Assembly: GCA_905178155.1 (NCBI GenBank)
Contig: CAJINV010000003.1
Location: forward strand, 10,855,367-10,919,366
DNA: 64,000 nt
DNA from: Amoebophrya sp. A120
Lineage: Eukaryota > Protista > Dinoflagellata
Direction: 5' to 3'
This document shows, piece after piece, positions 36,806-62,195 of the stretch. The first letter of the stretch is position 1. Each line of letters opens with the position of its first letter. The translations under genes and the position numbers were made by a program. The notes under the pieces were generated by a model. The model did no database searches, was not told the origin of the DNA, and was given only the letters and a program-made list of their open reading frames with translations.

Positions 36806-39800
36806 ATGAACGCACCTCCGGTTCTCGCATCAAGATGGTATTCCTACGTCTTGCAAAACAAGAAAGGCACGACGACGGCGCGTCAACAGTGGCGCAAATT
36901 TATTTATCTCATCCTTTGCACGGTTCTCGTTCTCGGTCTGTCGATGCAAGAAGTTGCGGCCTCGACAGCGTCTGCATCGAGCACCTCTTCATCTCCAGTG
37001 CAATATCGCCAGCAAATATGTTGTCGGGGTCTCGAAGATTGCGCGAGTTATCATGCCGGTGGTGCATGTGCACGTCCCGCCGCGAGGCCTAAAAAGCATG
37101 GCCTAGTAGCGCCACAGGTTTTGCCGGCAGGGGCACCTTGCACCGCCGATTTTGCAAGCGGAATGTCTCGCCGACCTGTCCCTGGCAAGAGATATGCGGC
37201 TTCTGCTGCTCATGTGCAATGCAGGTTTTTGTCTGTTGGCCACGACTTCTTGCAGGCACGATCACAAATCCGCACTCTTCCAAACCCAGAAATATTTGCA
37301 GTCCATACGCAGGTGCCGCAGCTGATTATGAGCGGCGCGAATTTTCCGACGTTGCCTTGGCAATTTGTGAATGCGCTCGAGAAGGTATGGAAGTGTCTGG
37401 GTTGAAATTAATCTTTCGACAATGCACTATCCCTGTCCGGGTTGAAGCTGATATTATTTCCACAATAGTTTATTTTGACGCACAGAAATAAAATCGGCAC
37501 CCTGGTGTATTGTTCTATTAGATCCCCGCTTCCCGCCGAGTGGCAGATCAGAAATTCTTTCAAATTTTGAATGCAGTCAAATTCCAGTTGTCATGCCGTT
37601 TGGTCGTGCTCGTGCAAACGGAGCTGCTCCTGTCAATGTGCCGCTTAGCAACCACGTTCTTCATCTTGCCCCTTATTTGGCATACAATCGGCAACGGCAT
37701 AGTTTGCTTGCTCTCCAATACAACAAGCACTCTAGTACTGTGCCTAGCATTTCACTCGTCACTGGCCGTTTGAGCTTTGTCGATAATTTCGACCTTTGCG
37801 CTTCCATAGGAGGGCGACCCCTTTGCCTGCGGCAACCCCGTGGCGCAACATTTGCCGCAAAACATAACGCCGGTGCCTTTCGAGTGGATGTTTTCCAAGG
37901 TCATCATGTGCCGACAGTACGTGAATGGTACCACGAACGCCAGCACGGCTTCTGAAGCCAATAGCTCCACAACTTTTAATGCCAGCAATGCAAGTTCAAG
38001 CGGAAGGCGGCTCATGACCGATTCGGGTTTTTTCGTTTTGGAGGACGAAGATGATGTTGGCTCGCCCATGGAACTTGACGCAACTGGAGAAGAATTCGAA
38101 AAGGACGACGCTTACCCCCGAAAAAGAACGAGCAGAGAGCGACAACGGAAGTTGAGCACTTCGTCGGCCGCAACCTCCACCGAAGCGCAGACGGTTGTGG
38201 AGCTGCAGGAATTCGTAATATCGAATGTGTTGATGCCAGACACGCCGCCAATGCTTTTCCCAGACGACAAGGTGACGCTTACACTCTCCTGCGGCGGCCT
38301 CGGGTGCAGCCCCAACTTCTTTGGGTTTTACTCCCGCACGCCAGACTGTGCCCAGCCAGCTACTGAGGTGCAACGGTTCGAGGGCACGGGTGCAACGTAC
38401 TACAACTTGACGGAGGTGTATCCAGAAAAACAAAACAACCCAGCATCTTCGCAAGGCCTTCGTTTACACATGGACATGCACTTTGCGAGAGAACAACAAC
38501 TCAAGGAGTGATGCGTGAAAATAATGTATCGTCTTCGTGGTCAAGCTACTTAAGCGCCACAGTATTTTTTTTTACATTTTCACGTTATTTCTGTATTACT
38601 ATACACACGCGAACACAAGAATATGATTGAATTTGTCACTGTCATTCCGGAGTAATTTCTGATGCAGCCGCAGCGCTTCGCCACCTTCCAACAGTGTGAA
38701 GATAATTGTGCTGGTGTAGATATTTTTTTTCCTGGACAAATTGTATCTGACGCTGGATCTGCGAAAGTTGTACGGCTTTTACTACGTGTGTTTTGCACGG
38801 AGCGAAGCGCCCGATTTGCGGGTGATCAGTTTGAGTACGGGACTACACAACGCAAGCTTCGCTCCCGATTCCTTCGGACCTGCAAGCCGGGTGCCGATGG
38901 TGGAGCACGGTGTGGCTCATCGCCTGGCAGACAGTTCTACCAGCATGTTGGTGGATCACACCGGCGCGGGGCAGGAAACGGAAACCCACGCGCAGTCCTC
39001 CACCGCAACGGCGGAAAGCATGGGGGTGGCGCCGCCGGACGAAACGGCTCACGATTACTTGTTTTCCGGTGAATTCTACGAAGGTCACTTTGTGACCGGG
39101 TTTCCGCGGGACCGGAACCCGAAGTTGCAGTTCGTCAAGCGATATGCGGGGCGGGACCAGATATACTATCTGTCGCACGCCATCTACCCTGGGCACGCCA
39201 CGCTGGACGGCAAATTGACGTGGCACTCGATTCCGGACGTGGTCTGCAGCGGCATCCGCGTGTTTGTCTTCCCCGCGCACTCGTGGGAGTACAACTTTCG
39301 CGGACCCCGGCCGATCTCGCTTCGCAGCCCCGAGCCCGCGGTTTTTCCTCCCGCGAACTACTACAACCCGGGTGGAGGTGCTGGCGCCGTCGACCCGGCG
39401 GACGAGCTGAGAGCGACCTTCCTGGTACTCCGCAGCAACAGTCCAGATCCCGTGGAGTTCTACCTCGCCAATACGACGCGGTCGGAGGAGGATTTCGAGC
39501 CCATCTCGCCCTACCGGCAGACCTCGTTTTGCGGGACGCCGGGGGAGATCGTGGAGTCCACGCGCACCCTCTTTCGCTCCGCGCCGAGCACGGACGCCCG
39601 GGCCACCGAGGGGTACCCACCAAACGAGTACAAGCTGTTCGCGTACGTAAACACCAAGGACCTGAAGCCCCGTCGGTTTTACACGGTCTGCACGAACGGA
39701 CTCGGGCAGTTTCAGTTGCTGAAGGTGTGGACCACGGACCTGTTCGCTACCCCGAGCCACCTGACGCCCTACCCCACGACCTCCCTGGTCACCAGTTTGT

Positions 39801-42800
39801 TCCGCATGCGCCCGGAAGAGGTCTTCTCCACGGACCGCATCTTCCTCGGCGACGAGAACTGCCGGGTGGAGGATTTTTACCTGAAAGCCATCGGGAACTT
39901 CTCGGTCGTGCCAAGTTTGGACTTCGGCCCGCTACCGCCGACCCGCGCGCAGGTGTTGCTGACCAAGTATCTGAACTACGACGTACAGCTGAACCCCGAC
40001 CAGGTGGTCAAGTTTCATTGTCCCAACGCGCGCTCCTCGGGCTGCGTGGAGGGCAAGACGTTCCTTTTCCTCGCGAACGTCACCAATTACACCGTCCCGC
40101 TGGGCGACCGCCGCTACACGGGCAACTGCGAAGAACAGGTCACGCCGTCCGTGCCCGTTTCCCTGGACCGGTCGCAGCTCGTTTTCGGAAACTTGACGGA
40201 GTTCGTCAACTTCACCGCCACTGTGGACGTTCGCACACTGACCCCGATGCAGCGCTACTCCGTCTGCATTGATTACGACGGCAGCAGCACAACCTTCAGC
40301 TCCCAGGGCGGCACAAAGACCACCGCCTACGCGCCGGTCTTTCTGGACATTTTGTTCGTCAACCCGGTGTATGCAACATTGCAAAAGTAAAAATATCTGG
40401 TGCACTCCGTATCAGTCCTGGAAATTGCAATTTTCTTCAGTTGTTGCTCGGAAACAAGCAGATTATTTGTCATGCAAAGCTGCAATTTGTACTTCACTTC
40501 TAGTTAATTTGTGCTTCCTCGCCCACCCCCCGGGGAGGGGATCCTTGGCCTGTGGCGCTGGGTACGGGTGTCCACTACATGATGACGATGATGATGATAG
40601 TAGGCAGGCAGCGATGCTTTTACTTTTGCAGAGCATACGGCACGCCGGTTCGTGCCCAAGGGGTTCGTGCACTTCGGGACGCCGTCGACCTTCAACCTTG
40701 AGGGTTTTCCGCTGTTCCCCACCACGAGTCCGGACTATTTCACGACGGTCACCTTTTCCGACGGGACCGTGCAGACGTCAGTGACAGACTCGCTGGATGT
40801 CAACGCGGTGTTCGCGTCCGGGACCATCCTCGGGGCGCCGCTCACCTCGCGCGAGATGGTTTTGTACTTTGCGATGGAGAAATCTTGTGACGGCCTGACC
40901 GACGACACGCCCTTCTACGCGATTAACCCGGTCGCGAAGGCCGTCACCGTTATCCCCCGCGGGGCGCACCTGTGCATGCGGGTCATCGAACGGTCGAAGG
41001 TGACGAAAACCACGATCGGCATGTGGACCGGGGATACGCGGCTGAAGGTGGAGGACGTGTTAGCGAAACACCCGGAAATCTTCCTGACCAAGTTCCAGAT
41101 CTGCGAGATGCCGGTTTGGAACCCCACTTTAGTGACCCTTCTCGCCACGGGGCGCGAGATCGCGCTCTACGGCGGGTCTCTCGGCGTGGAGGCCATTCTG
41201 AGCGGGTTCCAGGGCGGCTCGGTCACCGGGTTTCAAGCCTCCAAACTTGGGCCGTTCCTGTGCTTCACGCACTGCGCGGACGTGGAGTCCACGACCCGGA
41301 GGCTCTTTCTTTCCTCCTTTCCGCGCGTCGAGCAGCAGCTGCAGATGGACTACGAGAAGAAGCGCGTGGACCCTAATTGCTTCCTGTCCGGGATGTGGTG
41401 TCCCAGCGTGTGCGAAACGAAGCTCGGGTTGTACGACAGGGACGCGTTTGCGCTTCGGTCCGAGCTGGTCACGTCCGAGTACGGCACCGGTGACGAGTTT
41501 TGGCTAAACCTGCCGAACAAAACCGAGATGCGTCCCGGGAAACACTACACGCTCTGCCTCTTCTTCAGCGCGCGCGACACCCGCGCCGCCCAGAATCCGC
41601 GGTTTATGACGCCGCTCGCGTCTCGCCGCGTGTTTCCCCTGCCCTACGTCCAGGGTCCCTACGCGGAGGCAACTTTGCCGAGGAGCAACGAGCTGCCGGA
41701 GCTCAACTATTTTGGCGACTTCAGTAAAACCGGACTGCGGGCGGTGACGTACGATCCGAGGAACGACACGGTGCTTGCTGGCTCGATAACGCCGCCCGCG
41801 GACCGGAATTACACCATCACGGAACAGGATGTATGCATTGCAAATTATGCGTCCTCTGGGTCTGGATGGATGCACATTTGTCATGCTTGGCCGACAAGAC
41901 TGAACACAGGCTGTCATGCTTGTCGCGCTACAGTATCACTTGTTTGTCATGACAAAATGCTATGTGTCATGCGGGAAACGAACGCGAACGCGTGACCTAG
42001 CCGCTCAGAAACTTGTGGTCGTGCGTGGTCCTGTAGTAAAGTTGATAGAGGCCACTTATATACTTCGGACATTAGTATCACAACTTTCCTCCAGACGCAG
42101 ACATATTTGCAAGGCATAGGACGCGCTCGACGACAACTTTACGCAGTTAGTCTCGTCGGGATACGACGTTTACATTTCGCCGGTTCTGCAAACGGAGTAC
42201 CGCATCGTGAAGCCGCTGCCCAACCAGCAGATCCGCGTGTTCTGCCCCATGGTGCACAACGAGGTGATTTGCCGCAACGACACGGCGCAGTTCTTCCTGG
42301 CCGACCACCGGGATTGCCTAGAGCGCAACCGGCGAACGAGCTACAGCACCTGGCGCGAGGTGCAGTCGGACCCGAACTACGAGACGGGGGTGGGCCACGC
42401 CGAGGGCATCCGGTCCAGCACGTCCGAGCTCGCCCCGAACCTGGACGAGATCCACTCGGACGAAGTGTTTCTCTCCAACGGGCGGCACTACGTGTTCCAC
42501 GAGCAGCCGGGCTACTTGCAGCAGAACCGCACGTTTGTCGTCACCATGGACACCTCCCGTCTGCTGTCCGACTACTTCTACTACCTCTGCGTCGACGTGG
42601 ATGGCATCGACCGACGGCAGTGGGACGAGAGTTACTCGGGCTGGAGCGGGGTTTTGGTGTACGTGACCCCGGTGCACCAGCTGAAAGACAACACGATCCG
42701 CCAAAACGCCTCGGAGCGGATCACACTTTTCGCGGAGGAGGGGCTCACGCTGGGGTTTCTGGACAAGGTGGTTCCCCCAGACGCCAATTTGACGTATGAC

Positions 42801-45800
42801 ATGGATAGCAGCGTGGTCACCCAGATGTGCCGGGACAACAGTTCGGAGCGAAATTTTACTCGGACAACGGCTGCGTCCGCACAAGTCGTGGAAGCCGACC
42901 TCGCGTTTGGCACCCTGGATGGCTTTCTCCGCCCGCTGGTGGAGTACAGCCTCGAGGTGAACGCGTCCGCGCTGCAGGAGGGCGTTCACTACGTCTTGTG
43001 CGCCCAGCGCAACCGCAGTCGCGACGTGGCCCTGCAGCAGTCGCTACTACACAACTGGACCGCGTTTGCCTCGCTCGACGCCCCTTCCGGGCGGGACGTC
43101 CTGTACGCGCAGGACGGGCAGAGCCCGATCTACGCGGCGGTCACGGACTTGGCCCGGGTCGAGCACGCCTCGCTGCTCTCCCTTCCCGGCCACCAGGGCG
43201 TCACGCTGGAAAGCCATCAAGTGGTGCCGACGCTCCAGCAGAACAACTGGTATCCCCTGTCGCTGTTCGGGTCCAGTGACCAGCGGGTGTTCGTGTCTGG
43301 GTTCCAGCGCTTCCACAACGTCAGCATGATCCTGGGCCAGAGTAACTACAGTGTCAGCTGCACCGCCTGCGAGCTGGTGGGCCGATACGCCTACATCAAC
43401 TCCGATGCGGAGACCCGGGTGCATCTGGCCCCGACCGTGGACCAGTGCGGGGAGCGCCCGTGGACGTTCTGGACGTACACGGTGAACGCGCCGCCAAAGT
43501 GCATCGAGGTGTCACCCTTCCCGGATCTGATCATCGAGTGCTTTCCCGACGTCACACGGAAGCAGATCTGGACCCCTAATTTCCTGGATTTCGTCAAGTA
43601 CGGGGCCTATTACCAGATCTGCCTGAAGCACCAGCACAGCCAATGGGGCAATGCTGCGGTCGACGATGTGTACGTGTCGCCGGCGACCGCAGAAGTTGAC
43701 GTCACTCTTGTCCGCGGGCGGCGAGACTTCTTTGTCACCTTGAGTTGCTACTACGTGTGCCACTTGCAGGATCCCTCGCGGAACTTCACGACGCACGATC
43801 CGAGTTTGACCACCATGGAAAAGGGAAACATACCCTACCTGAAGTACTATCGTTTCGCCACCTGGGAAAGCATCGCAGACGCCTACAATGTGAGCAGCAG
43901 CGACACTGCGATACTAGTGACAAGGTAAGAAATCATCGAAAACACATTACTTCTTGTAGTTTTGAAGTAAGAAGAGCTGTGGATGTTGAGCTTTTTTTTT
44001 GTGCGCCGGCGTGCAGCGCCAGCACGAGTAGCGGGTCGAAGCAGAAGTTGCAGGAGACCAGGGTCCTGGTAGCAAGGCGCACTGCCGGGTATTGTGCGAG
44101 CGGCATGGCTTGACATTCATACACTCATAAGTCGTGCTTGCTATAGTGCTATAGTAGAAGCCCGGAAAAACTCACGTGAACATCAGATACTGCACGTCGG
44201 AGTGCGATCACGCGAAGGGATTTTTGCGGCCCATCGAGCAAAAGACGTGCGACCGCTCCGCCACCCACGGCATTGCAGTGGATCCCCTGCCGGGCGACAA
44301 TTTCAACAAAACGATCACCACGGTGCTGCAAAAGAGTGGCACTCCCGCAGAATGGAACGAGCCGCTCCTGATCGAACGGAGGATTACGGGGATCTCAGAC
44401 GTTAGATTCTCAAGAACTGTATACATAATTTGCCATGCAAAATTGCCATCAGCGCCCACCCCCCGGGGAGGGGATCCTTGGCCTGTGGCTCTGGGTGCGG
44501 GTTTCCACTACATGATGATGATGATGACACGGCCAAACTACTTCGCACGACAAATCCTCAAAGAGCTAAATAGAATTGCTATCTGCGCCGCACTTGTGAT
44601 GTAACAGTTGGAAGCTCCCGCCCGTTTCCCCTTTCAACTGTTGCCATTCTCGCATCACAAATTCATGTATACAGCTGAGATTATCAGTAACGTTTTAGAA
44701 CGCCATAAGGATGAGGCTGCTCGTCGAGACGGAAGCGTACGCGCCGCGGGCGTACTACGGGGTCTGCCTCAACACGGGCTACGGCCCGGGTCCGGTGCCC
44801 ACCTCGGCTAGCATCTTCGTGCGCGACCAGGGTATCAAGAAGTTCCACACGGTCGGATTTGTGTTGGGAAACGCAGAGTACGTTTGGTTTGATTGCGACG
44901 GATGCGTGCCGGGGGTAACCCGCGCATTCCTCCAGGAGTACAGCATCGATGACAAGTGCTATCCGCAGTTCTACGAGCTGCGTACGGCGAGTGGGAAAGA
45001 CGAGGGGCGGCCTGACCCCACGCTGCGGTCCGACAGTTTGTGGCTTCTGGACTCGCGGCAGTTGACGCCCAACATCCACTACTACCTGTGTCTGGACCTG
45101 GACGGAGCGGACAGCGACATAATGACCTACGAACTGGTTGACGCGACGTTTCTCGGGACCGAGATTCACGCCCTGTTCTACAGCATCATAGCGATGCAGT
45201 ACGACCCGCGCGCTGCGTTCGCGGAGCGGGACCAGCACATCTACGTGGATTTGCCCTACTGGGGCACCAACGGCAACCGCGCCTTCTGGATGCTCGAGCT
45301 GGAGCGGTGCCGGCAAGGGGTGAACATTAACGACATCCAGGACACGTCCCAGTCCGGCGCCAACTGGAATTACGATCCTAACGGACTCGACGACTGGAAG
45401 CACAGCCGAGTCTTGGAAGTGAACCCCACGTCGAGTCTCGCTCCCCAGGTCGGGGAGTATGGCCGTGTCCCGACTCCGCGGGAGGACAGCGACTTGCTGG
45501 TGTGGTACGGCAAAACGCACCTGACCATGTTGCGTTCCGGCTATTACTACCGGATCTGCGGCGCGGACCAGCTGGGCCGGGGCATGGGCGATACGAATCT
45601 GAAGCTCTTTATCTCGCCCGTGCTGGAGTTCGCCACCGAGTCCGCCGAGCCGGAGCGGCGGCAGGAGGTGCGGTTTTCCTGCCCCGAATGTTACGAGAGC
45701 GAGACCCTGGCGTTCCTCGACTACAACTGCTCCCAGGCGCTGCAGCCGTTTCTCAAGTTGGCAGAGATAGAAACCCGCGCGCAAAGTCTGAGTAGCTCCC

Positions 45801-48800
45801 TGCAAGCCGAGTGGACGTCTTTGCTGACGAGCCTCGAAAACACGCCCTCCTACTACGTCGCCACGAACGACGTGAGCGAGCACAAGTACCCGGACCCGAC
45901 CGACCACGGGATACCTGCCCCCGCGATTTCGCCGCTCGTCGACTTTGTCGCGGCGCACCTCTATCCGCAGATGACCACCACGGTGAAGAAAGCGATCCAT
46001 TTGGTGTACGACGCGAACCTCGACACGCCGTTGTTCTTGATCCCCTACAGCACCAACGTGACCGGCACGAGCGCGGTCAGTCCCGCTCCGCTAGAACCGC
46101 CCGGCGAGTTTCGGGCAATCGTCGGACTGGACGAGGCCGCTCAGCTATCCACTGCAAATTAATATCGACGATCTGGGCCCTCGGGGAGAGCTGTGCATTT
46201 GTTTGTGCCAATGGCTGTGCCATGCATCTTGCTTCTGCCATCAGAAGATTACAGATACAGATGAAACTAGGCAAGATTATGCTTTTTGCATCAGCTGCTT
46301 CTAGAGCTGGAGTATTGGTATGGCACGCGAAGCGTTATAGGTTTTGAGAAGCCCGCTCCCAAAACATGGGTACTCCTGTGAGAAATAGGGTATATCCGTT
46401 GCTGGAAAGAGACGTCAGCGCCATTTGGCACGCGTGCAACACCGATTTTTGTCTGCACGAGGTGGAGAATGAGTATCACAAAGGTGCAATGAACTCGTGG
46501 TCGAGACCCAGACATACACAAATTTGCGATGCATAGCAACAGGGGGAGTACTACCGCAAGCAGCTGACGAACACCCTCCCGGTGCACACCAACCTGGAGG
46601 CGTGTTGCGGGTTTCGGTACCAGCTCGTGTACCACGCTCGAAGCCTTCTTCAGCAGCCACGGTACCCGGTGAGTTTGGGAAACGACACGTGGTCCATGAG
46701 CGTGGACTTTAGCTACGCGGAGAAGGGCCGACATTACGAGCTTTGCATACGGAGGAACACCACTCTCCCAAGCGGACCGTCCAACTGGTATGTTTTCGTG
46801 AATCCGATCCCGAAACGGCTAGACATCACGATCAAGATGCTGAACCTGGAGCCGGCAAGGCTGCACTGTCCCGTGTGCGCGAAGCGCGCTAACAATCCCA
46901 ACGTGTACCAATCGCGACTCTATTTGACCGCCGAGCCGGTGTGTAACCCGTCCGGAAAACGCACCGAGGTACAGTACCTGCACACCAGCGCGCAATTGGT
47001 CACAATCGACGACGTGGTGCCCGGGTTCAACGCGCTGACTCGGCAAAATGCCAAGGTCATGCGTGTATCACAGGTGTACTTGTTACACAACTCCCCACGT
47101 TGTGGTTGTCCTTCTCGTTTGTCATGAAAAATGCCATCAAGAGGGAGAGCGGCCACATCCACCTTTGCCTTGTGACACTGTGTACCGCGTGGCAGGGTCG
47201 GAACCCGAAATTCCAGCGCTAGAGACCTTAATTACCAAATCTTTATTCAAAAAAGAGAGGCTCCTTTGCAACGCTTGGTCCCAGTCAACGCCTGCTGGGA
47301 CCACGATCCTATAAACATCGTGCCTGTCCGTTTTCATTCAGGGGTCGGGGGACTGCGGGGAGTTGTGCACTCTGATAGTGCGGCGGCCAGACTTACAAGA
47401 TGTGCATAGACGTTATGGAGCTCTCAAACGTTACATGCTCAACTGTTACATGATTTGTCATGCCAAATTAATGAGCATCAAGATCAACATCCACACGGTG
47501 AACGTGAAGGCACTTCGCGCAACAACTTTTGGAAGGGTTAAGCAGCAGCAGCACCTAGAAAATCTGTGCGGAATTTGCAATGCTACAAGTTATGGCAAAA
47601 ATCAATAGAAGAAAGGTCCTCGCACCTGTAGCATTGCAAATTCATGTGAATAAAGTTGAGAGTGTAACGCTTGAGCGCACCATATACGTAGATGGTCCGG
47701 GGCCGCTCGCGCCGCACACGAACCACTGGCACTTGCCGACCATGCGGTACGGGTACGCCAAACCGCACACGATTTTCGTGTCCCCCATTCTAACAGCGCA
47801 ACGGACCATCTACGATGAGGGCTCGCAAACAATCGACATGGTCTGCCCGGATCTGGTGTCCGCAGTAAATTTCCCGTACACAGCGACGATGTGCAAATGC
47901 GGATTCCGCATCCACGACGAATCTTATGCTTGCCTCCCATGCTAGAAGTCCTCAGTGGGACAAGTCGCGGCGTTACAGCACTCGTCTAAGTTGTTGGCTA
48001 ATAGAAATAATTTGTGATCCATTTTGTGCCACCAGCACGTCGTGTGCGGGAAATTATTTGTGTTGCATATCTGGGTTGCGTGGACGGGCAAAGCATCATC
48101 TTCCTGGAGCAGTTTGAGGCTGGGAAGGACCTGCTTTTGATCTGCAAGAACCAGGGGCTGGACAGGCGGTCGGATCCGTTGCCGCAGGTGGACGTGGCCA
48201 AGTTGACGGCGGTCGCGAACAACTTCCGCGTCACGGTGAACTCGGCCCAACTGGTCCCAGGGTGGTACCGGATCTGCTTCGACTACGACGGAGTGAGCGG
48301 CGCCCTGGTCCCCGGTTGGTCCGAGCACGACGTTTACAACTCGGGGGTGTACAACGCGTTCTCCACGGGCCTCGCCAAAACCACTAGCATGTCGGTCTTC
48401 GTGAACTGCAACGGCTGCTCCGAGGCCACCACCATCGCCTACTTCAGTCGCGATTGCGAAGTCACATACACTATCCAGAAGAAAAACGTTCTTCCAGCAC
48501 CTCAGTCTCAGAGTTGTCATGCAAACGTGCAAGCTTCACAAGTACAAGTTGAAGTTTCTCATGCGCAGCCCCATGGGGTGGTGGAGCATACTGTAATACT
48601 GTCTGGCAGGAGTTTGTCGTGCTAGAATCAGGGTAAGGAGGTAGATTTGTAATGCAGCTACAATTGCCAAACGCGATTAAGTACACTGCGAGCGCCAATA
48701 AAACCTTTTATGCGCGCCAGCCAAAAGTAGGAAAATCCTGATCTTGACTCTGAGGTGAGGACGTTTTTGTTCACAATATACACTGTTTTTGGAAACAACC

Positions 48801-51800
48801 GCACACCAAGGCTGAAGGTGGAAAGGATTACGCAGGTGGGTTTCCCCTACGGGTGGCGGCTCACCGGAGACACCAGTCTGCTCACCTATTCCTGGTCGTA
48901 CCGGCTATGCCTCAGCGTCAGCGGAAACACCACGCAGGAACCTATTGGGACAAGTTTGAAATTTTACGTGTCCCCGCTAGAAAATGTATACAACTTTTAT
49001 TATATTGATTCACAGTCCTCTCGTCTTACACTTCTGATGTGGCGCTTTGAAAATATCTGGTTGCTAATACTTAATTGCTTCGTTGACTATTTCTGCTTCA
49101 AGTTGAAGTTGTTCGCATGGCTACGTACAAAATTGGGATGCTTCGTGCGGTGTTTTTATTTGCCATATAAATAAAACTACAAGATATCCACACAACGGAG
49201 TCGTGAGTTGGGTACCAGTTATTTTTCCAATATAACCAAACACAGGTGAACATGATGACCGTGTTGCCGCTCGAGTTCCTGATGTATCGGTTCACCTGTT
49301 TTGCCTGCGACACAAGCATGATCGCCTACATTAGTTACCAGTGCGACACGCAGGATGGGTTGAATCCGGTGTACCGGAAGGAGGGCTATTTCGATTTGTA
49401 CATATGCTCTGCAAAAGTATCGCACTGGCAGTAATTGCAGTCATGCATAAGAAATTTTTTTCTTAAGGTGTATCAGCATGACATCCGTTTCCCATGCTGG
49501 GCTAATTTGTCATGCGATTCAATATACTAGTAGGCGCGATACTTTTGCAATGCATAGCACACCTCGCAAAGCAACTTTCTGAAGCGAGACAAGGTCCTAT
49601 CAGAGCGCAAAACCACTCGGAGACGTCCCCCTCTGCTAGCATGAACGCCAGGGAAGGCAGAAGCTATACCAGGAGTGCAGAATTACACAAAGTTTGTGTG
49701 TGAAGAAGATAGGTTCTTCATGTTGCACCGACTGCAGATCTGTATGGATGCTCGTTGGTCATGCAAGAAGTGCTTCCAGAAGGCAACACCAGGATACAAC
49801 AGTAAATGTGGGGAGCCGGAACGTCGAGGAGTTGTGCACAGTCATAGGGCCGCGCCGAGCAACCGACCGAGTTCGATTGGGCCCTGGAGATCGATGCCGC
49901 GAACCCGCTTCCCGGCCTGCGTCTATCCTGAGTAATTAATAGCTGTTGTAGCCGCACTCCCAGGACATTGTGACAAATCCACGCTGGTATCATCCTGGTT
50001 AGGGCATGGACGACCCTCTCGCAAGACAGTAGAGAACGCCTCTCAACAACAACATTTGGAGCCGCTTGTATGAGACGCACACACGACATGATAACCCGGG
50101 AATCATGGAAATTTGTATGACGTCAGCATCTGGTGTGAGTACAACTACGTTATTTTTACACAGGATGGCTTCCCGGACGACACTACAGTTTATGTGTGTT
50201 GCAAAACGGTGAATTGGGAAACGCGGTGCCGAACATCTACACCACCCCGATTTTGAAGAAACCTCTGTGGAACTGGCGCCCGTCCAACTTCTCCAGCTCA
50301 ACCTTCACAGCCGCGATCGGAGACAATGTGTGGATCTACAATGAGCCGGAGCCTTTGTACATTCACCCGGGCGGGATGACGGTGTGTGCGTGGTTTCAAA
50401 TGACGCCTTTCGACTATCAGACCAAGACCAAACCCTTCTTCCCGCTGAATCCCATCATCGATGGCGAGCGGTACGGCATCAACATCATGGCCAACACGCT
50501 GGAGATATCTTTTGTAAAGACGACGCACCCGCCATCCCATAGTCAAGACGGGAATTATTCTGCAAGACAAATAAATCCAAAACTTGTATATGGGAGTCAT
50601 GCGTCGGCGACGTGACAAGCTTGGCTATAATGCTGCGTTGCCGTGCCAAGCTAGTCCGGACGCGTCGCAAGTCCGCTCTCTTTTCCTGCACTTCGACTTC
50701 GCCCGACAATTTTACTTACAGACATGACGTAGACTAGAAAAATGCCAGCCGGGTCGCGCGAGATGTTTTGCGCAAGCAGATTTGCATGACAATCCTGAGG
50801 GCGCGGCGGGGACGTCTTTACTCAGGACAGGAAATCAACTTCTTCGTGCGTGACGACATGATATGCGTTTGAAATATGTCTGGGCGGTCTGGAAAGATGC
50901 AGGCAATATGTCTTTTTCGTTTTTACTGATGGAAGCAGCTAGACCAGCGCATGGCAGCATCAAGTGCAGCTGCATTTGTTGATTTACTTCTCCGCCTCTT
51001 GGTTGCGAATTCATTTTCATTGGTGGTAATTCATGTATTTTACAGTTTTAATCGGGCTTGCAGCAGCTCAACCACTGGAAAACTCGCTTTTATTCCTCTG
51101 CATCTGTCAGAGATGTCTATTTTGCCTTCGAAATCTTGCATCTCTGACATTTTTGTAATTGCGGTTGATACCTGACGGAGGGCTACAAGAAGGGTATCAC
51201 GTGCGGCGTGACCACGGGCATCCATCATGTCTGCGGTGTGTGGCAGGCCACGAGGGAGAGCATCGGGCAGGGACGTTTTCTGTACTTCACAAGTTTGAAG
51301 ATTTTCCTCGACGGCCGCATTTGCAACGAGAAGCCGTACGAGGGAACCGGCGTGATAGAAAAGGACTGGGACTACCTGTACACCATGGTGGGCGCGGAAC
51401 GGCGCTACATGACGGAATTCGAAGGCAGCATCTGGGATGCCCGGGTCTACGATGAACCATTCCATGATCGCCTGATTTATTCCCTGAAAATTACTTAACC
51501 ATCCCCGTCCAGTTTGTCACGCTCACGCGAGACATGTTAGTAAGTAGTAAAGTCACGGCTTTGCAGTCATGCAAAAACTGTATGGGAGTGGTAAATTTTG
51601 AGGGAATAGGATTGAGCAGATTTACGAGGAAGGCTACGCCTACCCTGCGCTCTCGCAATCTCTCGTGCGCTCGAATGAAACAGACGTACTAGCTTTCATG
51701 CGGGTTTGTTATCACTGCGATTTCTAAGTTCGTTGCCACAACAGAAAAGGCCTTTCTTTCTCATGTTTCTGTTTCCTGTTGTGTTAGTAAGTAGATTTAT

Positions 51801-54800
51801 GGAATGAAGAATGAAGCGCCATGCTGCACGACTCCTCTAGTTTTGAAACGAACGTCGAAATTCAAAAATACAACAGATCTACTTTTATTGTTACGTACCC
51901 TGCCTGGGCAGCAAGGTGGTTCTTTCGACTGACTGCGATGATCTCGAGGATCCGAGCAAGCGCGGGGAATTCGGGTCGGTAACAACGCAGCGGGCTGGTG
52001 TAATGGACATTCTGCCCACGACACCGGGTGGCGTCTACATATCGCACCAAAAAGTGCTAACATTAGAGGACGGATTTCGTACCCAGTAATACATCAGGAT
52101 TCAGGAAAGGCGGCCAGCTTTGGATGAATTGCATGATATCATGCAAGCATTCTAGGAATTTTTTTGTCAATGCCCTAAAGATTAGTCGAAGCCGTTCTTT
52201 GCGCTAGCATTTTTTTTTGTTTGATACTGGAATTTATGTTTCAAGATTCAAGACCCGCCGATCAATTTTTCGCCGTACAATCCGAAGTACGGTGACACAG
52301 GGGTGCGCGTGTTCGTTCGTCCCAGGATTCATCTTGTGCAAGTTGTGAGTATTCAGGTTTCCAGTGCGCAGGTGATGGTGATTCAGGAGGCAACTTCGTT
52401 GTTTGCGTGCCAGCCCTTGCTGCCGGAAGAGGTAGGGGAGACGTTCCTGGTGTTACCCACCTGGATTCGGGAACGGGGCATCCTCGCGAGTGGTTGGACC
52501 CAACTCCCCGCGGAGAAAGCCCTGTCCGAGTATGGGGTCTCCTCCGACGTGCCGCTCTATCAGGGATTCGTTCCGTTGGACAAACTCACGCCAGACGTGG
52601 GCTACACGGTCTACTGCGCCGCGCACCTAAACGAGGACGAAATCTGGATCCGCCCGTTTCGAACACAGGTGGCTGCGATCTTTACAGCCAAACTGCGCAT
52701 TCACGACGTGCAGCAGGGCCATCTGCAGTATGGAATGCACAAAAACTACTACGTCCCCGCCGTCCCAGCTTCGTCATCGACAAATCTGCATGCCTGAAAT
52801 GTTTCTCATGCGCAGCCTGCCTATGAGGAGTGTTTTCTACCGCTAGCGTCAGGAGTTTTCGTTTTGGTGTCATGGCCTGAGTAGCATAATGTCATCGATT
52901 TCTGATCCAACTGCTTCCGCTTCGCTAAGCACGGCTACACTTCAACTAGGCCTCAAGTTGCAATCTGCAACAGTCAAACCTAAAACTTCTCGGCTTGTGC
53001 AACAGAGTGACACAGCAGCTGTCATCTTGGCTATGGGTGCTGGGGGATGTTTTTACAGACGATATGCAGTCGCCCTACCACAATGGCCTCGTTATTCGTG
53101 CGACGGCACAGGGTTCGACCTTTGTCCAGTGTCGACTCGTCGGGCCCAACCGGATTTACCTCGCGAACTCTCCAAGTGCGCGGGAAGGCGAAGCGCCCGA
53201 CGGCAGCACGCTCAACAGCACAGTACCGGGACAAACCATCTACAAAGGTGTAGTTTATTGCTCTTCTTGTTATTCTTGTGATGTTGTCGGTCGCGACGCT
53301 CTGCTCAACAAAGAAATGGAAAATGGTCAGAAGTAGTTGTCGTGGTTGATAACTCCTCTACTAAAATATGAAAATAATATAGAATTGTTGTTGTCGTGGT
53401 TGCAGTACTTGCACAAGTCCTTATGTATGGTCCTCCTCTGATGTACTAGTTCTAGTTCTCGTAGTTCTGTGATCCACAGCACACCAACAGGGCCATCGTG
53501 TTTCAAGTCGAGCGCCGTACCTCCCTACCAGCTGTCGGATTTCCTGTATCCGACGACGGGTCCCGAGAACGGGACTGCGGCTGGGTGCGGGTACAGCAAC
53601 CTCACCTACTGCCCGGACTACTGCAGCGTCGGGATCGACGGGTTGTACCCGGCCTCGGACTATGAGTTTGAGTGCTGGACCTTGTCCGTGCCCCACGAGC
53701 GCCTGAACGGCACCGGGCGCACCGCGGTGCCCCCGCTCGCGTGCGGCGGGTTTCTGTGCGTGGCCCTGGATTCCCTCACGGGAATGTTGACGGAATGGAA
53801 CGTGTCCGCCACCCGTTACCTGCCGACCGCCAGCAACTTTCCTCTCCGGACGGTGGACACAAACGGGCAGACCTCCTGTGGTGTGCTGGCCGCCGACGTG
53901 CGTGTGGACGTGCAGATGACCAACCACCACGTGGAGTGTGTGGGGGTGCAGGCAAGTTTGTTCCAGGACACCACCCAGCCGTTCTTCTCCGTCTCCCTCG
54001 GCGAGTTCCACAAGTGCAGCGTCAGCCGCGGCCTCATCGCCAGTTTGAAGTGCGCCGGTGATGTATCCAATCGAAAAGAGTAGTAGCCCCAGTGGTTGTA
54101 GTAGTTCCAGAACATCAAAAAACGTTTCTCTCGCGGCGAATTTTTCACATTCAAAGAAGAAGAGCCTCCCTTTGGGGGCTGCTTGCATGAAAGGATTGGG
54201 ACTCGCTCCTGGTGCGGGTCTTTCAGATTGTGGGCGCGCGAGCACATGATCCACGCGTGATTCCGTACATGACAAGCTCGAGTTCATCTTTCTTGGCCTT
54301 TTTGCAATGCAGTTTCTTATTGAAGAACCTCAACCTGCATCGAACTCGAAGGCGCGCACTTGTCCACCTCCTGCGGTGGCAACTGTTTCCAGGAGTAGTT
54401 GGTGGTATTGCAGCTACTACGGAAGTAGTGGTCGTGGTCGGGCCGAGTTCTGGACCGGCAACCAGGGGACTTGTTTTCATGTTGATATGACGACCGGTGG
54501 GGGCAGTTAGTCACGCTCCGTGGCGAGGAGCTGGTGACCAACTACCTAGACGTTTCGTGCGGCTGGACGCACTGCTGCGCACTGTCGACAACCTTTGCGC
54601 TCAAGTGCTGGGGCTACCTGCCCAGCGAGGTAGCCGCCCCCGCGGGGGAGGTGCGGTTTGTGCAGGTGTCCAGCGGCCGCGGCTACAGCTGTGGGGTACG
54701 CGCCGACGACCGGCGGGTGCAGTGCTGGGGCACGAACGAGTTCTATCCCAAGAAAATGAATGCGCTTACATGTTACAGTCATGCGTTAGCGTTCGGTGGA

Positions 54801-55729
54801 AATTCAGCATCGAAAAGTAAGAAAGTAGTTTCGCACCATGTAGTGTTGACAAAGAAAGGTTTTCATTGAGGATACTATCCTGATGATCTCTGAGTCTGAC
54901 TCTGCATGACAACGCATGAGACTTCTGGGCTCGCGTGCTTAATATCCGGCATGACAGACCTTGCCCGTCGTCTTGCCTAGTCTGCGAGAACGCATCAAGG
55001 CCCGGTGTTGTAACTGTAGTTGTCGTACCTTTTTTCTTTGCATTCGTTTGGGCAGTCCATTCCCAGCAACGCCACCCTGCGCGACCTCGCTTTCGAACGG
55101 GTTGCGTGCGGGGTTCACCACACGTGCGGGATTCTGCAAGGCAGCCGGAAGATATCACGGGAAAAAGTGTTAACGTTAACGGAATTTGTGATGCGGCAAC
55201 GCATCACAAAACGTGTCAGAATTTGTCATGCATAGCATGCATATTTATTGGGCTACATTTGTGATGCATGGCTGCCATCTGTGAAAACCGTTAACGTTAA
55301 CACTTTTCCTTGGGATAGAAGATCGCGTGCTGGGGCGCGTTTGAGCTGGGGCAGCTGGATTTGGGTGCGGAAGTGGAGCAGGACGAGTTCATTAATGTGG
55401 CGGTCGGTTCCTACCACGCGTGCGGATTGAACCTGCACGGGTTTGCGCGGTGCTGGGGCCCAGGGATTCGGGAGGACGCCCTGATTCAGAATTTTACGCA
55501 CCAGGCCCTACTGAAACAGGACCCGGACCGGACCTTCGACTACAATCTGACCGCTCTGCAGGAAGATTTCGTCTTCTACATACCGAGGGAGCGAAAGGCT
55601 TTGTCCTACAAAACGATCAACTTTTTGCCTTTGACGAGCAAGTTTGGGTTCGTGTCCGCCGGAAGCGGGGCGTCCGGGATCCCGAACAATTTTTCGATGT
55701 CCGACCCGGTATATCATAGGACCAGGTAG
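36806..55729 (+). CDS. Giant secreted/surface protein: many Cys-containing beta repeats, LamG/ConA-like domain, C-terminal RCC1/BLIP-II-like repeats
   Basis: Hydrophobic N-terminal segment (FIYLILCTVLVLGL). Recurring h-x-x-G-x-x-Y-x-h-C-x-D-x-DG...VYVSP unit and many NxS/T sites. LamG-like HHVCGVW..KIFLDG..FEGSIWDARVYD. Repeats VSCGWTHCCAL..CWG, VSSGRGYSCGV..CWG, VACGVHHTCGI..CWG, VAVGSYHACGL..CWG. More than 20 exons, several junctions unresolved, so it could be more than one gene. Confidence 0.72.
37004..37307. mobile_element. Probable inverted-repeat intron (in frame, no stop)
   Basis: TGCAA/CGCAG flanks, gcaaatat / atatttgc inverted repeat. Element+5 = 309 nt. Confidence 0.55.
37386..37808. 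mobile_element. Inverted-repeat intron related to 22064-22374
   Basis: tatggaagtgtctgggttgaaatt / aatttcgacctttgcgcttccata, GAAGG/GGAGG flanks. Also readable as GT-AG. Confidence 0.8.
38419..38738. mobile_element. Non-canonical inverted-repeat intron
   Basis: tatccagaaaaa..ccagca / tgctgg..tttttcctggaca, AGGTG/AATTG flanks, frame-consistent. Confidence 0.75.
40370..40637. mobile_element. Non-canonical inverted-repeat intron, family TATGCATYGCAAA
   Basis: CGGTG/CGGCA flanks, tgcaaaagtaaaa / ttttacttttgca, TTGTCATGCA at 40467. Confidence 0.82.
40520..40598 (+). repeat. ~75-bp dispersed repeat with (GAT)n tail, copy 1
   Basis: cgcccaccccccggggaggggatccttggcctgtggc..ccactacatgatga, near-identical to 44453-44527. 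Confidence 0.9.
41832..42118. mobile_element. Inverted-repeat intron, family TATGCATYGCAAA
   Basis: GGATG/GGACG flanks, tatgcattgcaaat / atttgcaaggcata, three GTCATG boxes. Also readable as GT-AG. Confidence 0.85.
44385..44707. mobile_element. Non-canonical inverted-repeat intron
   Basis: Perfect AGGAT direct repeats, TAC..ATA ends, acgtta..ctgtatacat / atgtatacag..taacgt. Removal gives ERRMRLLV. Confidence 0.82.
44453..44527 (+). repeat. ~75-bp dispersed repeat with (GAT)n tail, copy 2
   Basis: Near-identical to 40520-40598. Confidence 0.9.
46146..46535. mobile_element. Non-canonical inverted-repeat intron
   Basis: TCAGC/GCAAC flanks, tatccactgcaaatt / aatttgcgatgcata, frame-consistent. 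Confidence 0.75.
47066..47377. mobile_element. Inverted-repeat intron, family TATCAGAGTGCACAA
   Basis: Right end is the near-exact reverse complement of the left end of element 5023. GCGTG/GTGCG flanks. Confidence 0.82.
47414..47684. mobile_element. Non-canonical inverted-repeat intron
   Basis: GACGT/TACGT flanks. tatggagctctcaaacgttaca / tgtaacgcttgagcgcaccata. Removal gives CIDVDG. Confidence 0.88.
47857..48069. mobile_element. Non-canonical inverted-repeat intron
   Basis: Perfect TCTGG direct repeats, aatttcccgtacac / gtgcgggaaatt. Removal gives CPDLGCVDG. Confidence 0.8.
48472..48778. mobile_element. Non-canonical inverted-repeat intron
   Basis: Perfect TACAC direct repeats, aaaaacgt..cacctcag / ctgaggtg..acgttttt, TTGTCATGCA at 48514. 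Confidence 0.85.
49403..49556. mobile_element. Non-canonical inverted-repeat intron, family TATGCATYGCAAA
   Basis: GTACA/GCACA flanks. tatgctctgcaaaagtatcgc / gcgatacttttgcaatgcata. Confidence 0.88.
49598..49846. mobile_element. Non-canonical inverted-repeat intron, family TATCAGAGTGCACAA
   Basis: GGTCC/GGGCC flanks, tatcagagcgcaaaac / gagttgtgcacagtcata. Confidence 0.78.
49924..50167. mobile_element. Non-canonical inverted-repeat intron
   Basis: GCGTC/GCTTC flanks, tatcctgagtaa / ttacacaggatg. Removal gives LRPGRHYSLC. Confidence 0.8.
50506..50829. mobile_element. Non-canonical inverted-repeat intron
   Basis: GGAGA/GGAAA flanks, gtaaagacg / cgtctttac, TGCATGACAA at 50783. Confidence 0.78.
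50862..51170. mobile_element. Non-canonical TAT..ATA intron
   Basis: CATGA/CCTGA flanks, weak inverted repeat, frame restored into the LamG-like exon. Confidence 0.65.
51478..51608. mobile_element. Non-canonical inverted-repeat intron
   Basis: TGATT/GGATT flanks, tattccctgaaaatt / aattttgagggaata. Confidence 0.8.
55153..55317. mobile_element. Non-canonical inverted-repeat intron (near-complete foldback)
   Basis: Perfect GAAGA direct repeats. aaaagtgttaacgttaacgg / ccgttaacgttaacactttt, plus gcatcacaaa / tttgtgatgc. TTGTCATGCA at 55223 in the loop. Removal gives SRKIACWG. Confidence 0.92.
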
Positions 55730-58718: not shown

Positions 58719-60883
58719 ATGGAGAATCGGTGCCGGCGCTTGTTGGAGGTGATGCGCACCCTGCAAACTCTGTGGGGCGGCGGCTACCGGGTTCCGGGAA
58801 CGGGGGAGTTTATCAAATGTAAAAATGTCTGGGTCTGGAAGATTCCGAGATTTGTCATGCAGTATTTCCAAGGTCCACCAAGTCTGGAATGCAGGGCATA
58901 GCATCACAGGTTCTGCAGCCCCTTGCTGATGCCCATTATGCATGAGAAATGCCCTCTGAGCATGGCGAGAAATGGGGACCTTTTGCAAGTCATGCAACAC
59001 AGATTTTTGTATCATCCGCAACACGCATCACAAGTTCGTATTCTTCCAGACCCAGACTGACATTTTTACATTTGATGGAGTTGCAGTCGCTGCAATTTCC
59101 GAATTTTTGTGCGGAAAAGACGCAGGTTCTTCAGTTGGATGCAAACCTCGTGAAATTTATGGAAACAAAAGGAAAGCTGAGTGCTGAAACGACAGCCAAA
59201 GTGGCCGCACTGTTTGGAATAAGAATCGAAGATGCAGCAACTGCCATAGGACCAGGATCGGCCGCAACTGCAACTACCTTGAGAGACGTTGACGTGGCCT
59301 CCAAAAGCTCAGAGAATAGACCTGCTGTGGCCCCCAGCAGCACTAACGCGGACATCCACATCGGGGCTGCAACCGGAAGCGCAGCGACTGCAGCTGGTGC
59401 CCCAAACGCTGCGCCAGTATCATCCACCGTACCTGCGAAAGTGAAAAATAAAGGTGGCTCATCCGGTATGTGCTGTTGTGCCCAGGACGGTGACGCACAG
59501 GGTGCGGAGGCCGAAGCGGCGGCCGTGCCTGACGTCAAGGGCCTGGCACGATTTTCGATTGCATCGATCGACGATATTAGGGCTGGCGAGGGTGAGGAGG
59601 GAGATCCGCTGGCCGCTCTAGCACAAGGGCAAGATGATCCTAGAAGTACCAACAAGAATAATACGAATGGTGCTACCAGCGGACTACAGCTAAATGATTC
59701 GCCCGTCGTATCACCGCAAGCGCAAGAGGGAGCTGCCGACGGCCAGACAACGTTCGAGATCCTCTCTGGTGCCCCAGTCAAGGGCACAACCGCGATGGGG
59801 GTCGCTCGCAGTCGGGCGGAGAGCGGTGACAAGCGAGTCGTTGCTTTGAATGCCGCTGCAGCATTCAAGGTGGGCGGGGGTGCCTTGACCGGGGGTCGGC
59901 ATGCGCTCGAGGAGTCGTGGTGTGCGACCACGACGCTGCTCCGCAGTTTGTTGCAGGCACAATTTATGGTAGAGCGTGGATCCATCGGACCGCGCAGCAT
60001 TTCTTCCGGTCTACTCAAAGACAATCGTGCTTCAGTAGCAAGTGCCGCAACCACTCGCAGTCCGCGGATGAGTGCCAACGTCAGGGTGACCACCACCTCG
60101 ACTGCGGCGACTACTCCAGCGCAGTCCAGCACGCATCATGGGGCAGAAAAACGATATTTTCCGAGTTACTCATGCGTGATGTCACCCAAGGTAGAAATTT
60201 TCCGCGGGTCCATCTTCGACAACTACAGATTCTTGCCGAACTATCAAGGCAAAAAAGTTCTTCGTCACGAAAACTCATTGGGTTCGGCTTCGGGGGCGGG
60301 CATGAGCTTTGCAATACAAGCAGCATATTTATTGTCTGCGAAGATGATCCATAAGAAAGCATCACAGGGAGTTGAATTGTCAAGTAGTATGCGATGTGAT
60401 TACGGATGTGATTGCTTTTCTGCAACAAAAGAAAAAGTTGGAATCTTCCTTCGCAGGAGATGAAAGCTTCTGCAAAACCCTCCAAACCTGCCGATGAATA
60501 GTGACTAAAGCGATCTTTTTTCCTTCCACGCCCAACCAGTGGCGCTCGCTGGCGTGGTGTCCATTGCGGCCTTCAACTGTAATCCGAGTGTGCGTGACGC
60601 TCCCATCGACGCTCCGCAGGACCCCAGTGCGTATCGAGACGGGCTCCGCCGAAAGTGGTTTGTGGCACTGTGCGGCGCCGCACTTCTAGAAGGTCAGGTT
60701 CTTGTAGTTCCGGACGTCGGCTGCGGCGTGTTTCGAAACCCGCCCGAGGAAGTGGGCGACGCTTTTGCGTTTGTGTACTCGCAGTTTTTCGCCAACACAT
60801 TTGAGCGCGTTGTTCTCTTAGGGAATCCAGCTTTTTGCGAGCGTGCTGCCGCCGGGGCCGCAGTCGTAGTCCGAGCGCAGTGA
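58719..60883 (+). CDS. Microbial-type poly(ADP-ribose) glycohydrolase-like macrodomain protein (TIGR02452/DUF2263-like)
   Basis: VVALNAAAAFKVGGGALTGGRHALEESWC..TLLRSL, SPKVEIFRG, VVSIAAFN, LVVPDVGCGVFRNPPEEVGDAF. Introns at 58811-59077 and ~60242-60530. Confidence 0.82.
58811..59077. mobile_element. Non-canonical inverted-repeat intron, family TATCAAATG..TCTGGGTCTGGAA
   Basis: Perfect GAGTT direct repeats. atcaaatgtaaaaatgtc..tgggtctggaaga is inverted at the right end. TTGTCATGCA at 58852. Confidence 0.92.
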
Positions 60884-62195
60884 AGTGGACGAGCTCGTCC
60901 TCGCCGCAACTCTGTTTCGGTTTCCTTCTTCTTCTTCTTCACCTTCCTCTTCAGGAAGCAGGAGCATCAGTATATTCGACTCGCGAAAAATTTTGCGGAA
61001 AGGCAGCAGCTCTTGGTGCTACCAGCGGGAGCCTATCGCTTTCCTTGTGTATGATGAATGTCTGCCTAGTACTACTACCGAGGGCTTATTTAACATTGAT
61101 TGCAGGTTTCATTTACATTTTAATATCATACTGTGAGATGTTTATATATTGCGTTTGCGCTTGAATCGACGAGGGCCGCAGAGTTTTCGTAGAGGGCGGC
61201 AAGAACTGATTTCGCGTGCGTATCTTTCTACGAGGCTGCTCTTGATGTGAGTTTCCATTGAGGACAGGAGACTATTGAGGTGGTGGAAAATCAAAGAGGC
61301 GAAGTAGAAGGCTTCTTAGCTGCATCAAAAACCACCTCAAACTTTTGACGCGTCTACGCTTTCGTCGAGAATGACGATGGTAGGATCTTCCGCACGTTAA
61401 CGTCTTCTGTTCTTGTTTCAATACTTTAATATAATACCAAAAGAGCTGCATCAGATTCAGAGTACTCCTTGTCAGTGATGTGCGATTTTGCGAATGAGTA
61501 GATGCTGGCGGAGCAGCTCTGTGAAGGTGAACAAAAAACAAAATAAAGAATAGGACGGAGTGGAGATGATTTTTGGTGCACTCTGTTATTTCCTCTGTGA
61601 GCGAGTGTGTCAGTGTCCAAAGCTGAGAGTCCGCTCTGAAGCGCACTATTTGCAGCGCTTTTTGTTATTTTTTTATTGGTTCAGCATCAGTGTGACTGTT
61701 TATCACGTCTAGCAGACCGGTCGGTGATATGGTGAATCTTCCGGTCGCGGGCAATGGCCGTGTGCCAGCTGCTTAACAAAAAACACGGACTCACGAAGAT
61801 CTAACAAGATGGCCCGCTCGTCGGTGGTGCGCGGTTCCGCCGCGGCCCGCTTGCTTGTTGGTGTTATCCCGCATGAACACGTCCACAACTGCCCATGTTT
61901 GTGATTCAAATCTGCAAGCCTAAGAGTAAGATGTGTATGTTTGTGCTTCTCAGGCACGGCTCCATGAGGATCATTTTCTAAAAATACTAGCAGTTGCACA
62001 GGACGAGGAGTCCTTCTTGCTAGACGCAAGTTGCGCCGGCCCATCTCAATTTATTGTGACGTGGCTTCGCTAGCTACCGACGATCGTCATTATGCGAGCC
62101 CAAAGTTGTAGTCGCGCAGTCTGGTATTTCTACTGCCGGCCCAAACGTGTCATGTGCAGCATCAGGAATCAAAGCTTGTTATTTGTTGATTTGCG

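Follow-up and report, generated by a model that had tools for sequence, protein, structure and literature searches.

Short transposon-like elements that interrupt genes of the dinoflagellate Amoebophrya sp. A120 are very probably removed from RNA in one register: four nucleotides (nt) of the direct repeat upstream of the element and one nt of the downstream copy are kept in the spliced product. The elements lie in a 64,000-nt stretch (assembly GCA_905178155.1, contig CAJINV010000003.1, positions 10,855,367 to 10,919,366, forward strand; here the window, numbered from its first letter). All 24 element joints read from RNA contigs skipped the element plus 5 nt, and element plus 2 or element plus 8 was seen in 0/24. 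With offset defined as the number of upstream-repeat bases kept in the messenger RNA (mRNA), offsets 0, 1, 2, 3, 4 and 5 fitted 7, 10, 13, 17, 24 and 19 of the 24 joints, respectively. Mismatches between the two repeat copies identified the source of each base. At positions 1, 2, 3 and 4 the upstream copy supplied it 4, 6, 6 and 7 times and the downstream copy never (23/23), and at position 5 it came from the downstream copy in 5/5. Under uniform offsets the chance of this agreement was 10^-6.4 for the 18 informative joints and 10^-5.6 for the 15 informative joints with strict TAT..ATR ends, each to be multiplied by six for the choice of offset. Three joints, in three genes, could not slide and gave offset 4 directly (X3, X4 and X6 are contig runs read as RNA, X1 a DNA run):

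20140 to 20390, plus strand: GT..AG intron of element 20141-20386, repeat GCTCG/GCAGC; joint 20139 to 20391 without slide, in X3, X4 and X6 and not in X1
25790 to 26046, plus strand: GT..AC intron of element 25791-26042, in another gene, repeat GCCTG/GCACC; joint 25789 to 26047 without slide, in X3, X4 and X6 and not in X1
40369 to 40641, plus strand: GT..GC intron of element 40370-40637, in a third gene (the host gene below), repeat CGGTG/CGGCA; joint 40368 to 40642 without slide, offset 4 exact

The joints came from two regions. A single spliced X3 contig of 12,274 nt covers the host gene, and over 16100-29900 the rows listed held 13 RNA joints that were identical in X3, X4 and X6. These 13 had depth 0 in X1, whose contigs are unbroken over 16100-22090 and 23700-29900. 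Together this gave 28 RNA joints, 24 of element type and four of plain GT-AG introns, the latter being left out of the offset count. Element ends TAT...ATA lay at the exact skip distance for 18/24 joints; the other six had one variant end (TAC, TAG, TGT, ACA or ACT) and were placed by hand. The element-type joints came mostly from elements without an alignable common interior. Two joints seen only in X1 (21586 to 22064 and 22131 to 22221) were excluded, as they lie inside a repeated family and are likely repeat artefacts. RNA also corrected two candidates of a DNA scan: 48943-49232 is a plain GT-AG intron at 48986-49245, and 29259-29501 ends at 29486.

The 33 elements examined are inserts of 125-424 base pairs with TAT...ATA ends, terminal inverted repeats and a flanking 5-nt direct repeat. 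With the element fixed, flank identity was 0.78 for a 5-nt repeat vs 0.20-0.35 for lengths of 1-4 and 6-9 nt; each of the five flanking positions matched in 23-27/33 elements, neighbouring positions in 5-11/33, and 128/165 repeat positions were identical between copies. A scan of the window returned 18 TAT..ATR inverted-repeat pairs with a 5-nt repeat vs 0-3 in 20 shuffles, and 7, 1, 0 and 0 pairs for repeats of 3, 4, 6 and 7 nt. TAT opened 29/33 elements, AAA stood at positions 11-13 in 17/33 and two or more A in 24/33. Inverted-repeat pairing was enriched across roughly the first 14 positions and weak in a few elements; over positions 4-10 the ends were complementary element by element (130/231 pairs vs 73 +/- 8 shuffled). 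A120 introners are described with inverted repeats of 8-20 nt that start with TAT, seven variable bases and then AAA (PMC7789003), and as non-canonical introns with direct repeats of 3-5 nt at their borders, in co-oriented genes (PMC7789003; Farhat et al. 2021). The elements here have this end motif (TAT and, after seven variable bases, three or more A), inverted repeats within 8-20 nt, border repeats within 3-5 nt and co-oriented genes, with a G+C content of 51.2% in the window vs 51.2% in the genome; the mean intron is 277 nt here vs 240 nt (PMC7789003). Judged by end motif, repeat and G+C, they are the already known A120 introners. [quoted passage not shown] The mobile ends were visible in one family:

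22064 to 22374, no strand assigned: member of a highly repeated family, whose other copies diverge at 22063/22064 and 22374/22375, as shown by loose ends and by the summed depth of runs X1 and X6

This element has many other flanks in the X1 DNA contigs; other elements share partial similarities. As the other copies diverge at TAT and ATA, splicing cuts outside the mobile unit, by 1 base on one side and 4 bases on the other.

Because one offset fits all 24 joints, the intron has the form N-TAT...ATA-NNNN. The base at its start and the four at its end are free to vary: terminal dinucleotides were of 23 kinds among 33 introns, 22/24 element joints were not GT-AG at offset 4, and the base at the exon start followed no purine rule (A10 C9 G9 T5). 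Only 2/33 elements read GT-AG, both at offset 4, and as a group the elements lack the GT/GC-AG ends of U2-type introns. G stood at +1 in 4/6 mismatches of position 5, too few to judge a drift towards GT-AG. By comparison, T was present at +2 in 33/33, A at +3 in 32/33 and A at -7 in 33/33 elements; +2 T and -7 A together had 0/66 exceptions vs 6/66 for their pairing partners (Fisher p=0.028, post hoc). Element 49598 offers a GT-AG pair of equal length at offset 1 that was passed over (n=1). Three elements with a reversed internal motif were cut at offsets 4, 3-5 and 3-6, with no use of the mirror offset 1. The GT-AG option ignored at 49598 and the register kept by the reversed elements (3/3) indicate that element ends and transcription direction set the cut.

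The introns of the host gene comprise 20 inverted-repeat elements with other ends, two inverted-repeat elements reading GT-AG and four plain GT-AG introns. The gene model is free of stops, its exon lengths agree with the contig coordinates, and it aligns to a homologue (P0001) at 46-50% identity, gap-free at most joints of the conserved part. The protein has CxDxDG repeats and C-terminal RCC1 repeats, with Pfam RCC1_2 at 54492-54740. The gene and the features of its 3' part are as follows:

36638 to 55729, plus strand: host gene, 26 introns, predicted protein of ~3,927 amino acids, start codon outside the 12,274-nt X3 contig
47065 to 47381, plus strand: GT..GC intron of element 47066-47377, repeat GCGTG/GTGCG; joint 47064 to 47382, skip 317, offset 4-5
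47382 to 47412, plus strand: 31-nt exon encoding GGQTYKMCID between two elements, from contig joints and gene model
47413 to 47688, plus strand: TT..CG intron of element 47414-47684, repeat GACGT/TACGT; joint 47409 to 47686, skip 276, offset 1-5
47856 to 48073, plus strand: intron of element 47857-48069 (TGT...ATA), perfect repeat TCTGG; joint skip 218, offset uninformative
48471 to 48782, plus strand: intron of element 48472-48778, perfect repeat TACAC; joint skip 312
48986 to 49245, plus strand: plain GT-AG intron without terminal inverted repeat; joint 48985 to 49246
49402 to 49560, plus strand: AT..AC intron of element 49403-49556, repeat GTACA/GCACA; joint skip 159, offset 2-5
49597 to 49850, plus strand: CT..GC intron of element 49598-49846, repeat GGTCC/GGGCC; joint 49595 to 49850, offset 3-5
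49923 to 50171, plus strand: predicted CT..TT intron of element 49924-50167, repeat GCGTC/GCTTC; length sum 1995 = 1995, homologue GLRPGRHY
50505 to 53490, plus strand: seven predicted introns, based on the reading frame, a length sum and the alignment to the homologue; one contig piece begins at 53489
50506-50829, 50862-51170, 51478-51608, 52040-52226 and 52729-53064, plus strand: elements predicted within 50505 to 53490 by the model
51686-51876 and 53248-53490, plus strand: plain GT-AG introns predicted by model and length sum
54063 to 54491, plus strand: GT..AC intron of element 54064-54487, repeat TGATG/TGACG; contig piece ends at 54062, length sum 905 = 905
54743 to 55048, plus strand: predicted intron of element 54744-55044 (TAT...ATT), repeat AGTTC/CGTTT; length sum 905 = 905, homologue CWGTNE|FGQ
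55152 to 55321, plus strand: AT..AG intron of element 55153-55317, perfect repeat GAAGA; one contig piece begins at 55318, length sum gives +5, offset unreadable

Length sums covered the stretches between contig pieces. From the coordinates of the contig record, 905 skipped nt equal elements 54064, 54744 and 55153, each plus 5, with nothing fitted; the contig piece that ends at 54062 sets the offset of element 54064 to at least 4. A second sum of 1995 skipped nt equals the eight model introns from 49924 to 53490, with one fitted term, since intron 51686-51876 was deduced from the remainder. An element start at 50556 was rejected on reading frame and 50506 used. Some exons between neighbouring elements are short, namely 47382-47412 (31 nt), 49561-49596 (36 nt) and 50834-50860 (27 nt), the first two shown in the contig.

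An earlier note on this DNA had used repeats within the host protein as an internal ruler, arguing that excision is exact, keeps the start of the upstream repeat and has its junction at least 1-3 nt into the repeat. The elements and repeats at 47066, 47414, 49924 and 55153 were found where it had placed them, and its comparison motifs CIDYDG, CVDVDG, CLDLDG, CFDYDG, MRPGKHYTLC, LRSGYYYRIC and CGVRADDRRVQCWG all occur in the protein. Recomputed translation agreed that CIDVDG arises at 47414 only with element plus 5 and an offset of at least 1; MRGGQTYKMC at 47066 needs plus 5 and at least 2, LRPGRHYSLC at 49924 plus 5 and at least 3, and element 55153 gives CGILQGSRKIACWG with plus 5. The ruler gave the right answer, with unequal force. 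It is good at 47414, where D is fixed in five CxDxDG motifs and the homologue has CIDADG, and at 49924, where the homologue has GLRPGRHY; it is moderate at 47066, where the homologue has Q, not R. At 55153 it is weak: the four RCC1-like repeats measure 13, 14, 14 and 13 residues and P0001 is one residue shorter at this site, so length is undecisive.

The RNA contigs provided the constant-offset check that the earlier note had proposed. Exact excision was borne out by element plus 5 in 24/24 joints, with positions 1-4 from the upstream copy; the junction estimate was right but loose, the cut lying 4 nt in with the last repeat base from the downstream copy. Only offset 4 fitted 24/24, and one-codon insertions were seen in 0/24. 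Among the elements it had named for mismatched repeats, 47066, 47414, 29259, 29549, 25791 and 20141 were confirmed as RNA joints. For 49924 and 55153, element plus 5 follows from length sums (at 49924 also from the homologue).

Removal acts at the RNA level, as the elements are retained in the DNA examined (X1, and a metagenome match, L001, that keeps elements 25791 and 26466). We consider it probable that these are transposon-derived introns of the A120 introner type, cut in one register by a relaxed U2-type spliceosome positioned by the element ends. A transposase would have generated the 5-nt repeat by target-site duplication. TAT at the element start, occupying +2 to +4, would match the T-A-x that follows the G of ordinary introns and act as donor signal, the position of the acceptor would depend on how far it lies from the other element end, and the A at -7 is a candidate branch point; splicing would in this way read the element ends. 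Since the two repeat copies are cut at equivalent positions, the mRNA regains its pre-insertion length for any target sequence. Given the fixed register, a relaxed U2 spliceosome is quite likely. It is favoured by the two GT-AG-reading elements, which do so at offset 4; by the +2 T and +3 A, kept as in plain introns (5/6 GTA); by the published top end pairs, all NT-xx in A120 and all TT-xx in strain A25; and by the +2 T and -7 A being better kept than their pairing partners.

Several observations weigh against this account. X3, X4 and X6 are one sample and were taken as RNA by guess; contigs show the majority form only, and the raw RNA runs X9-X11 yielded 0 reads on the stretch; joints were read for 15 of 27 rows in the host-gene contig and 15 of 21 rows over 16100-29900, in four genes; and nine of the 33 elements have no listed joint row. 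Only three joints are exact, and four more leave two possible positions. The +2 T count is partly circular, since the element start was set by hand at T where a joint slides, and the orientation of the internal motif is only a proxy for that of the element. The sequence leading up to the -7 A is a poor fit to the usual branch-site consensus, with mostly G/C at the position two bases upstream, and A at -7 is present in only 4/6 plain GT-AG introns. In PMC7789003, U1 small nuclear RNA was not found in A120, and the Fig. 3 legend describes splice sites as variable relative to the hairpin for tens of thousands of introns.

The main rival accepts the same fixed register and has paired ends, with a 1-nt 5' and a 4-nt 3' overhang, processed by a distinct machinery that is guided by structure, along the lines suggested for the nonconventional introns of Euglena. 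We regard it as unlikely. The element-by-element complementarity of the ends, the 23 kinds of terminal dinucleotides and the missing U1 would all suit it, as would the similar logic of Euglena (N3-CDG...CH'G-N5-6), for which the machinery is not known (PMC12501133). Yet transposon origin alone would produce complementarity, and G-U and A-C mismatches in the stem were equal (25 vs 23); with G-U not above A-C, selection for RNA pairing was not seen. Over the first 13 positions, predicted pairing averaged <=0.01 in 5/33 elements, four of which have RNA joints, and the register coincides with GT-AG and keeps T+2/A+3.

Alternatively, cut sites may vary by molecule or element family, the constant offset reflecting majority contigs of four genes. 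Contigs do drop rare forms, the joint rows were read in part, and the legends of Fig. 3 ('variable') and Fig. S23 (1-5 nt) in PMC7789003 would agree. This appears improbable, as 24/24 joints fit one offset though the elements mostly share no alignable interior and the 13 joints over 16100-29900 are identical in three runs; sliding within repeats alone makes mapped sites look variable, as stated for Euglena (PMC12501133). A loss of the elements from DNA in some life stage, whether through excision by a transposase or through programmed elimination, with RNA copied from the shortened DNA, would suit the transposon-like ends, runs that are RNA by guess and a DNA set without other life stages, but is hardly credible given that X1 and L001 keep the elements, that the contigs with elements removed also lack the plain GT-AG introns (one ends in A8), that the offset is asymmetric and follows transcription, and that the junctions carry no footprints.

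The text of PMC7789003 speaks of 'no clear splicing signature', 'variable' sites and an 'unknown' border, whereas in the present elements every repeat measures 5 nt and every cut agrees with offset 4. Table S4 of that paper, in which the nine top end pairs are all NT-xx in A120 and all TT-xx in A25, and its remark on four upstream repeat nucleotides fit the offset-4 rule, part of which its figures may already show; A25 introner repeats start TTA-RR. As in Euglena (Nomura et al. 2025, PMC12501133), the terminal bases are free, complementary triplets stand at fixed distances with the shorter spacer at the 5' end, and direct repeats let joints slide, the code being found from non-sliding introns, the method used here. 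Euglena differs in its CAG/CTG triplets, spacers of 3 and 5-6 and purine exon start, compared with TAT/ATA, spacers of 1 and 4 and no purine rule here; its lineage is unrelated, and its code was tested by knock-in, whereas ours was read from sequence and contigs (PMC12501133). The elements here do not carry the signature N3-CDG...CH'G-N5-6|R, so the logic is alike without membership. The class 12 introner-like elements of Polarella glacialis share the 5-nt target duplication and offset 4 (bioRxiv 10.1101/2020.10.14.339549). In its NNAGG form the donor is the last duplication base plus the first element base, with positions 3-4 of the second copy as acceptor; only targets supplying G and AG become introns there, in several frames, in contrast to any 5-mer and one frame here (same source). 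Fritillaria borealis likewise has MITE-like introns with inverted repeats and target duplications, spliced by an adapted U2 spliceosome, with ends mainly AG-AC and AG-AT after an exonic TAC, whereas only the +2 T is fixed here (via PMC11282704).

In Amoebophrya A25 and A120, >60% of introns lack GT-AG ends; both the paper that described them (PMC7789003) and a 2024 review leave the manner of their splicing open. A fixed cut position likely gives the splicing rule left open for these non-standard introns. The 1/4 register appears to be unstated in the literature examined, mostly without subscription papers and theses: the portions seen of PMC12130899, PMC9860276, PMC12005148, PMC12787238 and PMC11282704 contain no A120 cut rule, term look-ups in PMC13326754 and PMC12621601 returned no mention of Amoebophrya, and literature searches brought up no paper dedicated to the subject. 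With a fixed register, 'variable borders' become a code whose positions can be named (+2 T, -7 A, spacers 1 and 4), open to a genome-wide check in existing RNA reads and to lariat mapping. It would correct A120 intron annotation and would add to Euglena a second, independent instance in which transposon ends are the reference from which splicing is measured. More tentatively, A120 may have a single splicing code N-TAT...ATA-NNNN, in which the spliceosome does without three of the four GT-AG letters and places the acceptor seven bases from a transposon-end adenosine. A newly arrived copy would then form a perfect intron whatever its orientation and whichever 5-mer it had entered, and the invasion by tens of thousands of introners would be explained; A25 would have come to this T+2/A+3 register via a different element (TTA-RR).

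Further searches of the window and its exons returned 0 Rfam matches within the 64 kilobases, no metagenome match for exon 46537-47064, and for exon 24600-25313 L001 as the sole match, with the same elements present and no empty site. Among longer proteins no full-length counterpart of the host protein came up, in a length band of 1055-3010 amino acids that leaves out its size. The motif TTGTCATGC (<=1 mismatch, either strand) occurred 40 times in 8,987 nt of elements (41832-42118, 22064-22374 and 48472-48778 among them) vs 0 in 11,807 nt of exons. Its distance from one element end was often 34-54 nt. It could be a binding site, as yet a candidate, common to otherwise unalike element families. 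Elements 40370 and 44385 have in common an internal 75-nt segment of 94.7% identity, possibly a nested repeat, with a related piece in another X3 contig. Among 38419-38738, 21255-21590, 26466-26750, 50506-50829 and 47857-48069, ACA closes four elements and TGT opens one. Ends of the form TGT...ACA, together with a duplication of 4-6 nt, are reminiscent of transposons of the integrase type (Ginger). Ginger-like elements without Ginger ends are described in A120 (PMC12130899). Elements of the same type also lie beyond the RNA-covered stretches, at 5023-5288, 5879-6035, 58811-59077 and 61865-62252.

The plain GT-AG introns (43925-44186, 48986-49245, 51686-51876, 53248-53490, 25318-25536 and 28758-29005) begin GTA in 5/6 cases. 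They are A-rich at the 3' end, five ending in ACAG and 5/6 being without a pyrimidine-rich end, and two carry ACA at -7 to -5, in resemblance to the variant element ends. The host protein is one of a family (P0001-P0038) of large repeat proteins of up to 4,138 amino acids, of which P0001 matches Laminin_G_3 and RCC1. By sequence motifs only, other genes may be tubulin-tyrosine-ligase-like (14400-15700), polycystin-like channel (18380-22780) and lipase-like (24000-26500, GHSLGG), the last at high contig depth. The regions at ~7010-7290 and ~13937-14217 have identical scan matches and flanks ~6.9 kilobases apart, marking a duplicated segment.

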